Origin: Escherichia coli
GTDB lineage: Bacteria; Pseudomonadota; Gammaproteobacteria; Enterobacterales; Enterobacteriaceae
Assembly: GCF_030013595.1 (NCBI RefSeq)
Contig: NZ_CP122768.1
Length of the DNA stretch: 64,000 nt
Direction: 5' to 3' (one strand)
Position numbers: made by a program. Of this stretch, positions 18,001 through 24,000 are shown in pieces; positions within the stretch are counted from its first letter, which is position 1; every line of letters begins with the position of its first letter.

Positions 18001-21000
18001 GCGTCAATGTCGAGACAGAAGCCCAGCAGCACGAATCTTCACGCACCAATGGCGGCGCGCTGATCAGGACTATCAATATTCGCGTTGAGAACCCTAACCT
18101 GCATGATTTAGCCATTAAAGATGTACCGATTCTCAACGGCGACAAAATTATCTGCTCGCGTCTGAAACGAGAAGAAACCCTAAAAGTACCTTCGCCAGAT
18201 ACCATTATCCAACTGGGCGATTTGCTGCATCTGGTGGGGCAGCCAGCGGATTTACATAATGCGCAACTGGTGATTGGTCAGGAGGTCGATACCTCGCTGT
18301 CTACGAAAGGCACTGATTTGCGCGTCGAGCGTGTGGTGGTCACCAATGAAAACGTGCTCGGAAAACGTATTCGCGACCTGCATTTTAAAGAACGCTATGA
18401 CGTTGTTATCTCGCGCCTGAACCGTGCCGGGGTCGAACTGGTCGCCAGTGGCGATATCAGCCTGCAGTTCGGCGATATCCTCAACCTGGTGGGGCGTCCG
18501 TCCGCAATTGATGCCGTTGCCAATGTGCTGGGGAATGCGCAGCAAAAACTGCAACAGGTTCAGATGTTGCCGGTGTTTATTGGTATCGGGCTTGGCGTAT
18601 TGTTAGGTTCTATTCCCGTCTTTGTGCTAGGATTCCCGGCCGCGTTGAAACTGGGGCTGGCGGGCGGTCCGCTGATTATGGCGTTGATCCTCGGGCGTAT
18701 CGGCAGTATCGGTAAGCTGTACTGGTTTATGCCGCCAAGTGCCAACCTCGCGCTGCGGGAGCTGGGGATCGTGCTGTTCCTCTCGGTCGTTGGTCTGAAA
18801 TCTGGTGGGGATTTTGTGAATACCCTGGTCAATGGCGAAGGGCTAAGCTGGATTGGTTATGGTGCGCTGATCACCGCCGTTCCGCTGATTGCTGTTGGCA
18901 TTCTGGCGCGGATGTTAGCCAAAATGAATTACCTGACCATGTGCGGGATGCTGGCTGGCTCCATGACCGATCCTCCGGCGCTGGCGTTTGCTAATAATCT
19001 TCATCCAACCAGCGGTGCGGCGGCGCTTTCTTACGCCACTGTCTATCCGTTAGTGATGTTCCTGCGCATTATCACCCCCCAATTACTGGCGGTGCTCTTC
19101 TGGAGTATCGGTTAACTCTTTTCCGGGTGGAGTCGCCGTAAATGGTACTCCACCTGGTATTCGCTGGCATTTCTGAACATCACTGAATAATTCAAAAACT
19201 CCCCGCTCTCGCTATATGACAACGAGGTGATCCGCAGCAGTGGCGTGTGTTCCGCTACCTTCATTTGCCGCGCCAGCAGTCTATCGGCGAGCACCGGCGT
19301 CAGGCTTTCATAATTACCGCCAATCAGAATCCCGCACTCTTGTTCAATATATTCAAACTTCGACCCTTCCAGATGTTGCAGCGAAAGGTTACGGAACAGT
19401 TTTACCGGCATATAGCTGTCTTCCAGCATCAGCGGTTTCCCTTCCACAAAACGAACGCGACGGGAGAAGTAGATCTGCTCGTTGATTTGAATCCGTAACT
19501 GGCTGGCAATGGCCGGAGGCGCAGGCATGATTTCAAAAATCAGCACCTGGCTGGTGACCGTTTTTCCCTGGCGTTTTAACACCTCCACCAGCCCGGTCAG
19601 GCTGGCGGTTTGATGCAATACATCTTTACGCACCAGGTAAGTACCGCTGCCGTGGCGGCGGACCACCAGCCCCCATGCTACCAGCAGATCAATGGCTTTA
19701 CGGATGGTCATCCGCGATACCGCAAACTCTTCCGCCAGCTTTTTTTCACCGGGAAGAAGGCTGTTTAGCGTGAAATCTGCGGAATTAAGTCGAATTCTTA
19801 ACCGCTCCGCAATGCTTTTGTAGATCATCTCTAGATCTCTTTTTTGCCTGCAAGCCCGGGTAACGCGCCCACAAGTTCTGCTTAATCGATTGAAAAAACA
19901 TATTTTTTTTAAAGATGTGTTCGATGCTGTGTACCAGTGCTCACAGATGTCTACTTTTTTGCGAAAACGTAGATCTCTACCGCCCAACGAAAAGCATGAA
20001 AGCGATCACGAATCCCACTGGGTCGTCATGTTCTGCCGATCGCATCTTCCTATCCTCGCTCCAGGCCTGCCGCATAACCAATCAGGCTTCCTACTTACAG
20101 AATTGAGAAAAGAGGATGTGGAAATGCTCAGTCAAATTCAACGCTTTGGCGGCGCGATGTTCACGCCAGTGCTGCTGTTTCCCTTCGCCGGGATTGTGGT
20201 GGGTCTTGCCATCTTGCTGCAAAACCCGATGTTTGTCGGGGAATCACTGACCGATCCGAACAGTTTGTTCGCGCAAATCGTACACATTATTGAAGAGGGC
20301 GGTTGGACGGTATTCCGTAATATGCCGCTGATTTTTGCTGTCGGTTTACCCATTGGCCTTGCTAAGCAAGCGCAGGGGCGAGCTTGTCTGGCGGTGATGG
20401 TGAGTTTCCTGACCTGGAACTATTTCATCAACGCGATGGGAATGACCTGGGGAAGCTACTTCGGCGTCGATTTCACTCAGGACGCGGTGGCAGGTAGCGG
20501 TCTGACAATGATGGCCGGGATTAAAACCCTCGATACCAGCATTATCGGTGCAATTATCATTTCCGGCATTGTGACGGCGTTGCATAACCGTCTGTTCGAT
20601 AAAAAACTGCCGGTGTTTCTCGGCATTTTCCAGGGGACGTCTTATGTGGTGATTATCGCCTTCCTGGTGATGATCCCCTGCGCCTGGCTGACTTTGCTCG
20701 GCTGGCCAAAAGTACAAATGGGAATTGAATCTCTGCAAGCGTTCCTGCGTTCGGCGGGTGCCCTTGGGGTGTGGGTTTACACCTTCCTCGAACGTATTCT
20801 GATCCCAACCGGTTTACACCACTTCATCTACGGACCGTTTATCTTTGGTCCGGCAGCTGTTGAAGGCGGCATTCAGATGTACTGGGCGCAGCATCTGCAA
20901 GAGTTCAGTCTGAGCGCCGAGCCGCTGAAATCGTTGTTCCCGGAAGGCGGTTTTGCCCTGCACGGTAACTCAAAAATCTTTGGTGCCGTGGGCATTTCTT

Positions 21001-24000
21001 TAGCGATGTACTTCACTGCCGCACCGGAAAATCGGGTAAAAGTGGCGGGCTTGCTGATCCCCGCAACCTTAACCGCCATGCTGGTGGGAATTACCGAACC
21101 ACTGGAATTTACCTTCCTGTTCATTTCACCGTTGCTGTTTGCGGTACACGCCGTGCTGGCGGCCTCAATGTCGACCGTGATGTACCTCTTTGGTGTGGTG
21201 GGCAACATGGGCGGTGGTTTGATTGACCAGGTTTTACCGCAAAACTGGATCCCGATGTTCAGCAACCACGCGGATATGATGCTGACCCAAATCGCCATTG
21301 GGTTGTGCTTTACCCTGCTGTACTTCGTGGTTTTCCGCACCCTGATTCTGCAATTCAACATGTGCACGCCGGGACGTGAAGATGCGGAAGTGAAACTCTA
21401 CTCAAAAGCCGAATACAAAGCCTCGCGAGGCCAAACCACCGCGGCAGAGCCAAAAAAAGAGCTGGATCAGGCTGCCGGTATCCTGCAAGCCCTGGGCGGG
21501 GTCGGCAATATCTCCAGCATTAACAATTGCGCGACGCGTCTACGTATTGCACTGCATGACATGTCACAAACGCTGGATGACGAAGTCTTTAAAAAGCTGG
21601 GAGCGCACGGCGTCTTCCGTAGTGGCGATGCCATTCAGGTGATCATTGGTCTGCATGTATCCCAGCTGCGTGAACAGCTCGATAGCTTAATTAATTCTCA
21701 TCAATCAGCAGAAAATGTTGCCATTACGGAGGCAGTATAATGACCAAATTCTCAGTGGTTGTCGCAGGCGGTGGAAGCACCTTTACGCCAGGCATCGTGT
21801 TGATGCTCCTGGCGAATCAGGACCGTTTCCCGCTTCGTGCACTGAAATTTTATGATAACGATGGTGCGCGGCAGGAAGTGATTGCCGAAGCCTGTAAAGT
21901 CATCCTTAAAGAAAAAGCGCCGGACATTGCGTTTAGTTACACCACCGATCCTGAAGTGGCATTCAGCGACGTTGATTTTGTCATGGCGCACATCCGCGTC
22001 GGCAAATACCCGATGCGCGAACTGGATGAAAAAATCCCGCTGCGCCACGGCGTTGTTGGTCAGGAAACTTGCGGACCCGGCGGAATAGCGTACGGCATGC
22101 GTTCCATTGGCGGCGTCCTGGAACTGGTGGATTATATGGAAAAATATTCACCAAATGCCTGGATGCTCAACTACTCCAACCCGGCAGCCATTGTCGCAGA
22201 AGCCACGCGTCGTCTGCGCCCGAATGCGAAAATCCTCAACATCTGTGACATGCCAATCGGTATTGAAAGCCGGATGGCGCAAATTGTTGGGCTGCAAGAT
22301 CGCAAACAGATGCGCGTGCGCTACTACGGCCTGAACCACTTTGGCTGGTGGACATCAATTGAAGATTTGCAGGGCAACGACCTGATGCCCCAGCTGCGGC
22401 AATATGTCTCTAAGCACGGTTATGTTCCACCGCAGCAAGATACACATACTGAAGCGAGCTGGAACGACACCTATGCAAAAGCGCGGGATGTCCAGGCTCT
22501 GGACCCGGATACATTACCGAATACCTATCTGAAATATTATCTCTTCCCGGATTATGTCGTTCAGCATTCCAACCCTGAACATACCCGCGCGAATGAGGTG
22601 ATGGAACATCGCGAGAAACAGGTTTTCGATGCTTGCCGCGCCATTACGGCGGCAGGAAATTCAGCGGCGGGCAAGCTGGAAATTGACGAACATGCGTCAT
22701 ACATCGTCGATCTGGCGGCGGCAATTGCCTTCAACACTCAGGAGCGGATGTTGCTGATTGTGCCTAACAACGGGGCAATCCATAACTTTGATGATGAAGC
22801 GATGGTCGAGATCCCGTGTCTGGTCGGGCACAACGGACCAGAACCACTGGTGGTCGGCGATATCCCGCAGTTTCAGAAAGGGTTAATGAGTCAGCAAGTG
22901 GCGGTGGAAAAACTGGTCGTGGACGCCTGGGAACAGCGTTCATATCAGCATCTGTGGCAGGCGATTACTTTATCGAAAACGGTACCGAGCGCCTCAGTCG
23001 CCAAAGCTATTCTGGATGATTTGCTGGAGGCCAACAAAGCGTACTGGCCAGAGTTACGTTAATTGTGTGGACTGGCATCCGTTGGGTGCTGGTCCGTATT
23101 CTTTAGCACGGCTGACGGCGCATAACCAAATTTATGTTTAAAGGCTTTGCTGAAATGAAAGGAGTCGAAGAAGTTGAGCGTATCAGCGACTTCGCCAACC
23201 GAGTTCCCTTGTTGCTTTAATAGCGATAGCGCCAGATCCAGACGTGCATCGAGGTAATATTCTTTCGGCGTCTTGCCGGTATAGCGTAAAAACAGACGAC
23301 GCAACCAGGCTTCGCTACAGGGGATCGTGGCAGCCATATCAGCTACGCTCCAGCGTTGTTGCAGACTGGCATGTAAAGTGGCAATTAGTTTTTCAATTTG
23401 CCGCCGTTGTGGATCTTTTTTACCGTCTGCGTACATAAGACAAATCCACTGATAAATAATTTTCGTCAGAAAAGCGACTGCCAGATTATTTTTTATTGCT
23501 TCTGGTGAAGTTATTAACTCAGCAACTTCGGTGAGTTCCTGATTATAAATTTCGCCATTATAAATAACGCTTTGCTGACCAACGGGAATATCCATCATAC
23601 TGGTGGGGGTAAATTCCATCCAGTACTGTTCCCAGACTAAACCTTCACAGTGATAAGAGTGAATATCCATTGGCTTTAAAAATATAATACAGTTGCCATG
23701 CAGAGTTATTTGTTCGCCATTCTTTAAAAGAATTTTCCCACATCCTTGTACGGTATACACCGCAACCCATGAGTTGGCGATAAGCGGTTTCTTCTTGTCC
23801 CGCGGCCAGATCACCCGGTAATGCTCGTCGGCGTAGGTATGCCAGCGCGAGATCAGAGAAATTCCGCTGGAGATCACATTTTCGTTAATCAATAAGGGAA
23901 TATTGTACGGAGTTTCGTTTTTTACATCCGAACTTTGCAATTTTCCATTCATTTTAATATCCCTCCGGCGAATTATGCTCACAACCTGAACTTAACAGAA

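Follow-up and report, generated by a model that had tools for sequence, protein, structure and literature searches.

An apparently undamaged yidP-glvCB-glvG allele in Escherichia coli, orthologous to the Klebsiella pneumoniae agl operon and decayed in K-12

Introduction

Does an Escherichia coli chromosome carrying uninterrupted glv genes keep a working alpha-glucoside utilization system that K-12 has lost? This question was raised by an earlier note on the window, that is, the whole 64,000-nucleotide stretch of DNA analyzed here, which read the phosphotransferase system (PTS) EIICB gene as a single 538-aa frame and the GH4 glucosidase as full length (440 aa), and set against them the K-12 state of separate glvC and glvB genes and a truncated glvG pseudogene (b3683, b3682 and b3681, respectively). 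We find it highly probable that the window carries an undamaged yidP-glvCB-glvG allele, orthologous to the K. pneumoniae agl PTS operon.

Organization of the glv locus

The window is part of the E. coli chromosome and encodes, in this order, yidP (minus strand), glvCB (plus), glvG (plus) and yidL (minus). The relevant features are the following:

19112..19828, minus strand: yidP, regulator of the GntR/HutC family (annotation), transcribed away from the operon and presumably its repressor
19829..20123, no strand: yidP-glvCB intergenic control region, 295 bp, between the divergent genes
20124..21740, plus strand: glvCB, 538-aa alpha-glucoside PTS EIICB, equivalent to K-12 glvC plus glvB (TIGR02005, Pfam and motifs)
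20835..20837, plus strand: Pro238 codon, Gln in K-12 (K-12 comparison)
21228..21230, plus strand: codon 369, CAG (Gln) in the window and TAG (amber) in K-12 (codon-by-codon comparison)
21740..23062, plus strand: glvG, predicted 440-aa GH4 6-phospho-alpha-glucosidase of the NAD+/Mn2+ type (PDB alignments and Pfam)
22333..22840, plus strand: 508-bp segment deleted in K-12 (alignment)
22333..22340, plus strand: left copy of the 8-bp direct repeat GAACCACT, deletion boundary (alignment)
22841..22848, plus strand: right copy of the 8-bp direct repeat GAACCACT, deletion boundary (alignment)
23059..23952, minus strand: yidL, AraC-family regulator, convergent with glvG and overlapping its stop by 4 nt

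The coding sequences of glvCB and glvG overlap by 1 nt at a TAATG stop/start junction, whereas the Klebsiella EIICB and GH4 genes overlap by 4 nt according to their called coordinates. In a near-identical genome, RefSeq annotates both glv genes without pseudogene flags; the intact genes are already present in that annotation, and the observation as such is already known. The yidL gene appears to be a mere neighbor of glv and is missing from the Klebsiella locus.

The mechanical open reading frame list gives the transporter as a 616-aa frame on the plus strand (19890-21740) beginning at TTG. The ATG at 20124 has a Shine-Dalgarno sequence (AAGAGGA) 7 nt upstream, coincides with the start annotated by RefSeq in the near-identical genome and yields the same N-terminus (MLSQIQRFGG) as the Klebsiella orthologue, and we therefore take it to be the true start. 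The TTG start was rejected, as the extension that it adds has no homologue and both the Klebsiella and the RefSeq proteins begin at MLSQIQ. With the ATG start, the single 538-aa EIICB frame is borne out, as is the full-length 440-aa GH4 gene at 21740-23062.

Assignment of the transporter and the glucosidase

The GlvCB protein scores 959.2 bits against TIGR02005, the alpha-glucoside EIIBC model (cut-off 607.3), in a match that spans residues 2-523 of the protein and positions 1-524 of the 524 in the model. Pfam searches on GlvCB identified PTS_EIIC (10-346) and PTS_EIIB (453-482) domains and returned no match to an EIIA domain. A GITEPLEF motif at 322, a His-His pair at 232-233 and Cys469 within CATRLR are all present, placing IIC (GITE motif) and IIB (Cys in C-x-T-R-L-R) on one polypeptide. 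RefSeq calls the product 'PTS sugar transporter subunit IIB', a misleading name for a full EIICB. The glucose EIICB of E. coli, PtsG (8QSR), has the same Glc-family architecture and shares the GITEP(I/L)EF, HH and C(I/A)TRLR motifs, but it is only a distant paralogue of GlvCB (199 bits) with a different specificity; against the TIGR02002 glucose model, GlvCB reaches 316 bits, under the cut-off of 592.

The GlvG protein aligns without gaps to the K. pneumoniae 6-phospho-alpha-glucosidase (PDB 6DUX/6DVV) over 440/440 residues (919 bits, 89.5% identity) and, again without gaps, to Bacillus subtilis GlvA (1U8X; 752 bits), and it scores at most 211 bits against 6-phospho-beta-glucosidases. Pfam assigns residues 6-184 to Glyco_hydro_4 (PF02056) and 195-415 to Glyco_hydro_4C (PF11975). 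Its GGGS stretch (10-13), Cys169-Asp170 in CDMP, His200 and Tyr263 are identical in the aligned 1U8X and 6DUX sequences. The N-terminal glycine motif of GH4 enzymes binds NAD+, and the GlvA residues Cys171, Asp172, His202 and Tyr265 reportedly serve Mn2+ binding and catalysis. Together, these alignments lead us to infer that GlvG is a GH4 6-phospho-alpha-glucosidase, with a predicted NAD+/Mn2+-dependent hydrolysis. Among the NCBIfam models that match GlvG, none is specific for 6-phospho-alpha-glucosidases; NF011657 (alpha-galactosidase) reaches 179 bits (cut-off 486) and NF041089 reaches 69 bits (cut-off 650).

Older K-12 annotations, 'arbutin-specific IIC' and '6-phospho-beta-glucosidase', would make this a beta-glucoside (arbutin) system, a designation that survives as 'Arbutin specific PTS permease' in Touchon 2009, and GH4 does include both alpha- and beta-specific enzymes. 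Such an assignment is hardly credible, however, for an EIICB that exceeds the TIGR02005 cut-off and is matched by beta-glucoside models only in its IIB domain (40-45 bits), and for a GlvG whose 919 and 752 bits to 6-phospho-alpha-glucosidases compare with the 211 bits or less noted above.

Comparison with the Klebsiella and Bacillus systems

The K. pneumoniae AglA/AglB system is a characterized one, reportedly described in Thompson 2001 and Pikis 2006. Its agl genes, encoding AglA (EIICB) and AglB (phospho-alpha-glucosidase, PDB 6DUX/6DVV), lie in the same divergent GntR-EIICB-GH4 order as in the window, and AglA, like GlvCB, is devoid of an EIIA domain. A Klebsiella contig encoding the exact 6DUX sequence carries, at this same place in the chromosome, yidE, GntR, EIICB, GH4 and yidH in that order. 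In E. coli, but not in Klebsiella, yidL-yidK-yidJ-yidI separate yidH from the GH4 gene. Identity between the two species amounts to 81.6% for EIICB, 89.5% for GH4 and 79.8% for the regulator, next to 85.0% for the flanking core protein YidE. This gene order and identity mark glv as the positional orthologue of the K. pneumoniae agl operon. In the passage of PMC5309279 that cites Pikis 2006, AglA is stated to use E. coli EIIA-Glc, and expression of aglA and aglB to allow K-12 to utilize isomaltose. What appears to be the K. pneumoniae table of PMC3877295 lists Klebsiella as 98.9% palatinose-positive.

In B. subtilis, GlvA (MalA; 1U8X) is the same kind of GH4 phospho-alpha-glucosidase, with CDMP, His and Tyr conserved, and the maltose PTS protein GlvC (MalP) is, like GlvCB, an EIICB without IIA. 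The B. subtilis gene order, glvA-glvR-glvC, is unlike that of E. coli. The literature describes B. subtilis GlvC as able to use E. coli EIIA-Glc. The regulators differ, GlvR being positive according to the title of a reference and YidP belonging to the GntR family.

Lesions in the K-12 copy

E. coli K-12 has the same locus and flanks as the window, and the DNA is ~98.6% identical over the shared parts. RefSeq flags the K-12 PTS gene as 'internal stop' and the GH4 gene as 'frameshifted'. The alignment revealed a Gln369 amber codon, a P238Q substitution and an out-of-frame 508-bp deletion in glvG, none of which is found in the window. The earlier note was thus right that glvC and glvB are separate and glvG truncated in K-12, but the frameshifts that it expected for the transporter gave way to a nonsense codon: the glvC/glvB split comes down to one amber codon, Gln369 CAG to TAG (window 21228). 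The Klebsiella orthologue keeps the Pro238 that is replaced in the K-12 EIICB, and E. coli PtsG has a Pro at the aligned position.

In glvG, where a frameshift in K-12 does hold, the cause is a 508-bp deletion (window 22333-22840) between two copies of the 8-bp GAACCACT repeat, by which the reading frame is shifted and the GH4 C-terminal domain mostly lost. The resulting K-12 products are a GlvC of 368 aa, a GlvG stump of 212 aa and a 'GlvB' of 161 aa whose start is Met378. K-12, NIID080884 and SA31-1 have one and the same deletion junction. The full-length frames are absent from K-12, so that the difference in genotype stands. On this comparison, the K-12 copy reads as a late-stage decayed form and the window copy as an undamaged E. 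coli allele.

Distribution of the locus in E. coli

Population counts were made on 5,426 complete E. coli genomes. The locus is present in 4,279 of these, and 1,652 (about 30%, including O157:H7 and B strains) keep the 508-bp segment; the intact state of the window is therefore ordinary. The K-12-type deletion is common to ~2,600 genomes. At codon 369, the CAG allele is found in 3,921 genomes and TAG in 348, and the amber carriers, as sampled, are laboratory K-12 or K-12-like (O16:H48) strains. An intact EIICB allele is thus the norm, and the intact state is not unusual. In the sequenced O157:H7 genomes that were checked, the glv genes are intact, whereas B-lineage strains and FAHZZU6724 combine a frameshifted yidP with intact glvCB and glvG.

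The remaining 1,147 genomes yielded no match to the locus, and a spread sample suggests that most of them are without yidP-glv altogether. About a fifth of the genomes in that sample have yidE and yidL but lack yidP, glvCB and glvG (e.g. 81009 and Ecol_276). These absences, together with the inclusion of glvC among the variably present genes in Touchon 2009, could be taken to mean that the window strain acquired a glv cassette horizontally and recently, rather than that an ancestral locus was degraded in K-12. We regard such an acquisition as very unlikely. The locus occupies the same position beside yidE in K. pneumoniae, its 80-90% identity to Klebsiella matches the 85% of flanking YidE, GC content across it (0.50-0.54) is like that of the surroundings, the open reading frame list contains no mobile-element genes flanking glv in the window, and K-12 keeps remnants at the same site. 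In the best explanation, which as a whole we hold with considerable confidence, the locus dates from an enterobacterial ancestor, and its decay within E. coli follows a mosaic pattern. The repeated independent losses within the species show that the glv system is dispensable, a point that weighs against this explanation.

The same EIICB protein (WP_000952127.1) occurs in the glvG-intact strains HCP5S3_I2 (and hence in the window), O157:H7 G5295, IMT16316 and 99-3165, and in the glvG-deleted NIID080884. The identical 508-bp deletion is found on different flanking haplotypes, which differ only at third codon positions. Because ~2,600 genomes are without the glucosidase and nearly all of them have an uninterrupted EIICB (the amber codon being confined to 348), a role of GlvCB independent of GlvG can be proposed. 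Either such a role, or a loss of the 508 bp that is recurrent or spread by recombination and favored by selection, seems to us improbable.

Predicted function and expression

From the gene content we infer the following scheme for substrate range, EIIA partner, regulation and actual expression. GlvCB would import an alpha-linked glucoside while phosphorylating it at O-6, candidate substrates being isomaltose, maltitol, methyl-alpha-glucoside and the sucrose isomers (palatinose, turanose and others). The phosphate would be relayed from PEP by EI, HPr and EIIA-Glc (Crr, whose gene lies outside the window) to Cys469 in the IIB domain. Such transfer from EIIA-Glc is documented only for K. pneumoniae AglA and B. 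subtilis GlvC, each expressed in E. coli. With NAD+ and Mn2+, GlvG would then hydrolyze the 6-phospho-alpha-glucoside, releasing glucose-6-phosphate and the aglycone. Motifs, orthology to Klebsiella AglA/AglB and purifying selection suggest that the locus may encode a working alpha-glucoside system.

YidP probably represses the operon. The protein (WP_001300779.1), which K-12 also has, carries a GntR-family annotation and is 79.8% identical to a GntR+UTRA protein at the same K. pneumoniae position. The control region contains blocks conserved with Klebsiella, among them the inverted half-sites GTCTAC (19949-19954) and GTAGAT (19969-19974) and a further block, CATGAAAGCGATCACGAATC (19995-20014), which may represent candidate operator and CRP-like sites. 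A CRP-consensus match with 2 mismatches at 19930-19945 was not relied upon, because the window contains 28 such matches against 26.7 expected, a frequency equal to chance. Rfam returned no match to an RNA element or antiterminator in the glvCB leader region.

Intact genes may nevertheless belong to an operon that is cryptic, that is, transcriptionally silent like bgl, asc and chb, with a phenotype appearing only after activation, for instance by loss of YidP. No consensus sigma-70 promoter was found in 19700-24200, and the frameshifted yidP of the B-lineage strains and FAHZZU6724 is the type of change that activates cryptic operons. In the literature searched, the K-12 homologues are called 'cryptic or nonfunctional' and also truncated. 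Furthermore, 55/55 isolates of E. coli were palatinose-negative in Vitek 2, as was one isolate of O157:H7 that had not been sequenced (PMC9631374); the operon may thus be silent, or induced only under narrow conditions. Vitek is, however, a short test on a single substrate, applied here to isolates that were not genotyped, and the control region shares conserved blocks with the active Klebsiella system. Across E. coli alleles, pN/pS ranges over 0-0.13 for glvCB and 0-0.074 for glvG, at most about 0.1 over a pS of about 0.05 in both genes, and such low values imply proteins that are expressed and selected in nature. On balance, we consider a cryptic operon a tentative possibility, and favor the reading of an undamaged allele whose products may function as outlined above. 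The searchable full-text literature yielded no experiment on expression or growth with a native intact E. coli glv operon; for alpha-glucoside phenotypes tied to native glv, it gave only the K-12 cryptic/truncated statements and general Vitek and Biolog tables.

Implications

The damage that turned the wild-type allele into the K-12 pseudogenes is now placed exactly, which matters little beyond bookkeeping. The intact allele is a common polymorphism, and K-12 is therefore a poor reference for the glv locus. Window-like and B strains may already carry genes that are otherwise introduced from Klebsiella or Bacillus when strains are engineered for isomaltose or panose use.

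Organization and gene content of the glv locus

The window is a piece of E. coli chromosome. Over 16800-28500 it is virtually identical to the same-coordinate stretch of HCP5S3_I2, a strain from pig faeces in the UK, with four SNPs in 9.3 kb. The following genes make up the locus and its surroundings.

ibpB, upstream of yidE
17454-19115, + strand, yidE as annotated (open reading frame from 17430)
19112-19828, - strand, yidP, GntR family regulator
20124-21740, + strand, glvCB, PTS gene, 538 aa
21740-23062, + strand, glvG, GH4 gene, 440 aa
23059-23952, - strand, yidL, AraC family regulator
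yidK and yidJ, downstream of yidL

Both the single 538-aa PTS EIICB frame and the full-length 440-aa GH4 glucosidase frame claimed in the earlier note were recovered. The start of the former was moved from 19890, where the open frame merely has its first TTG, to the ATG at 20124, because this codon lies 7 nt downstream of an AAGAGGA ribosome-binding site, is the RefSeq start and gives the same N-terminal residues as the Klebsiella orthologue. The two genes meet in a TAATG overlap and GGAGG precedes the second ATG, which makes their translational coupling probable.

The EIICB protein scored 959 bits against TIGR02005 (alpha-glucoside-specific EIIBC; cut-off 607), and stayed under the cut-offs of the models for glucose, maltose, N-acetylglucosamine and beta-glucosides. 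It comprises Pfam PTS_EIIC and PTS_EIIB domains without a IIA domain, and carries the GITEPLEF motif, a His-His pair and Cys469 in CATRLR. The GH4 protein reached 919 bits against the solved K. pneumoniae 6-phospho-alpha-glucosidase (6DUX/6DVV) and 752 bits against B. subtilis GlvA (1U8X), in both cases aligning end-to-end and without gaps; its match to 6-phospho-beta-glucosidases was far weaker (at most 211 bits). It retains the NAD-binding GGGS motif, Cys169-Asp170 (CDMP), His200 and Tyr263, the last three sites corresponding to residues with catalytic roles in GlvA.

RefSeq names the full 538-aa EIICB (20124-21740) 'PTS sugar transporter subunit IIB'. The NCBIfam equivalog NF007255, 161 positions long, coincides exactly with EIICB residues 378-538, the same stretch as the K-12 'GlvB' fragment; this model appears to have been built on a pseudogene piece, and the label that it lends to intact proteins is misleading.

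Other features of the window

Rfam gave four matches exceeding the gathering score, all as expected at this place in the E. coli chromosome.

511-591, - strand, AsdA, antisense RNA of dnaA
6068-6110, - strand, ES036 sRNA
16239-16311, + strand, ROSE_2 thermosensor upstream of ibpA
30995-31124, + strand, istR, tisB antitoxin RNA

One internally repetitive open frame of 3,806 aa runs through 48133-59553 (+ strand; repeated 16-mers at 51861-56130). In its place HCP5S3_I2 has two frames, the 2,162-aa iatC (inverse autotransporter adhesin) and, after it, an ORF of 747 aa; the window therefore differs from this otherwise near-identical strain in a repetitive adhesin gene. Further along, HCP5S3_I2 (locus L015, 29987-36980; window ~57000-64000) carries ETT2-type type III secretion remnants, namely an IS1-disrupted eilA, a tip protein resembling IpaD/SipD and a translocon gene resembling YopB/SseC, and the window has a 538-aa ORF in this region (59686-61302, - strand). 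The uhpB gene of HCP5S3_I2 (record 37433-38935) contains an internal stop.

Two lesions disrupt the K-12 genes

RefSeq flags the K-12 PTS gene as 'internal stop' and the GH4 gene as 'frameshifted'. Alignment of the window and K-12 PTS genes, both of 1617 nt, revealed 23 differing positions, of which only P238Q and the change of Gln369 from CAG to TAG alter the protein. Since the genes are equal in length and the amber codon is the sole interruption, K-12 'glvC' (368 aa) and 'glvB' (161 aa, beginning at Met378) together represent a single EIICB that is cut in its membrane domain. Both the Klebsiella protein and PtsG share Pro238, which marks the K-12 Gln238 as the derived state. K-12 glvG lacks 508 bp (window 22333-22840) flanked by the 8-bp direct repeat GAACCACT, whose presence at both ends points to a microhomology deletion. 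The deletion removes most of Glyco_hydro_4C and shifts the frame, leaving a 212-aa product.

The separation of glvC and glvB and the truncation of glvG in K-12, both given in the earlier note, thus stand, and on alignment K-12 lacks the full-length frames of the window. The frameshift sought by alignment was found in glvG but not between glvC and glvB, where a single amber codon accounts for the split. The observation is real and its reading essentially right, with the K-12 lesions restated as one amber codon and one 508-bp deletion. The supE (glnV) suppressor, present in some laboratory strains, inserts Gln at amber codons; it would restore the wild-type residue at the K-12 amber (window 21228), while P238Q and the glvG deletion would persist.

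An ancestral counterpart of the Klebsiella agl system

On the contig encoding the exact 6DUX sequence, the K. pneumoniae agl locus occupies the same chromosomal position as E. coli glv, in the order yidE, divergent GntR regulator, EIICB (540 aa), GH4 and yidH-yidG-yidF. Identities with the window (EIICB 81.6%, GH4 89.5%, regulator 79.8%) are near that of the flanking YidE (85.0%). Together with the ordinary GC content of the locus and its shared position and gene order, they argue that glv is an ancestral, vertically inherited agl orthologue and not an island. K-12 provided with aglA and aglB uses isomaltose, according to PMC5309279 (citing Pikis 2006 and Thompson 2001).

Distribution and decay in E. 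coli

Counts were obtained over 5,426 complete E. coli genomes.

Table. Genomes matching segments of the glv region
3.3-kb region matched: 4,279
508-bp segment present: 1,652
K-12-size gap (by difference): about 2,600
CAG (Gln369) 55-mer: 3,921
TAG (amber) 55-mer: 348
Region without match: 1,147

All 348 amber genomes match the K-12 55-mer at 100% identity, and nearly all of the 12 sampled are laboratory K-12 derivatives, engineered strains or O16:H48 isolates. Full-length loci were present in every O157:H7 genome sampled, in B/BL21-type strains and in many animal and human isolates, with both genes uninterrupted in seven of the eight loci inspected. From these counts and loci, an intact EIICB is the species norm and the intact glvCB-glvG pair a common minority state; already annotated by RefSeq, the pair is an ordinary, common allele of a known system. 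About one fifth of genomes (spread sample, wider region; e.g. 81009, Ecol_276) have yidE and yidL without yidP, glvCB or glvG, and glvC has been listed among variably present genes (Touchon 2009).

Lesions independent of those in K-12 are found in Z226-6 (a frameshifting deletion in glvCB) and M23917 (where IS200/IS605-TnpB sequence has replaced what lay downstream of glvC, itself truncated). An IS200/IS605 tnpA remnant adjoins glv in several strains (L005 3290-3731, L006 6715-8440, L009 3660-4101), at the site where the window has yidL and its neighbours; in M23917 (L006) it is followed by a TnpB gene, and hardly anything separates the truncated glvC from yidH. These elements represent another independent decay route.

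The deletion junction is the same in K-12, NIID080884 and SA31-1 (glvG remnants L001, L011, L012; ~ window 21740-22332). Across the 593 nt preceding it, these strains have about 10 variable sites, all at third codon positions, with 7-8 differences between K-12 and either of the others; the haplotypes therefore diverged under selection before the deletion came. This pattern suggests that the deletion either recurred at the 8-bp repeat or was spread by recombination. An identical EIICB (WP_000952127.1) is encoded in glvG-intact HCP5S3_I2 (hence the window), O157:H7 G5295, IMT16316 and 99-3165, and in glvG-deleted NIID080884, which may reflect either a glvG-independent role or merely a recent deletion.

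Selection and regulation of the operon

Pairwise, the glvCB alleles (n = 10) differ by 0-3 nonsynonymous and up to 32 synonymous changes (pN/pS 0-0.13) and the glvG alleles (n = 8) have pN/pS of 0-0.074; both proteins are therefore kept by selection. Also counted in favour of function were control-region blocks common to the window and Klebsiella, which include inverted GTCTAC/GTAGA half-sites of the type bound by HutC-type GntR regulators and forming a putative operator. Two results count against it or at least urge caution. No consensus sigma-70 promoter was found in 19700-24200. In PMC9631374, the Vitek 2 palatinose reaction, a short test of one substrate, was negative in every one of 55 E. 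coli isolates and in one O157:H7 isolate, all ungenotyped; what appears to be the K. pneumoniae table of PMC3877295 gives 98.9% positive. The full-text literature searched held no study testing the native E. coli operon. The data leave room for an operon that is silent or narrowly induced.

At 19864, 19902 and 20018, between yidP and glvCB, the window is unlike each of the five other E. coli alleles in the comparison; 19902 lies in the A/T-rich tract TTGAAAAAACATATTTTTTTTAAAG. Three strains combine a frameshifted yidP with intact glvCB and glvG: NEBExpress_Iq (L004 32-669), FAHZZU6724 (L008 1-429) and INSC1002 (L010 1-429), the first and last being B/BL21-type by name. If YidP is a repressor, its frameshift could mean that the glv operon is derepressed in B strains.
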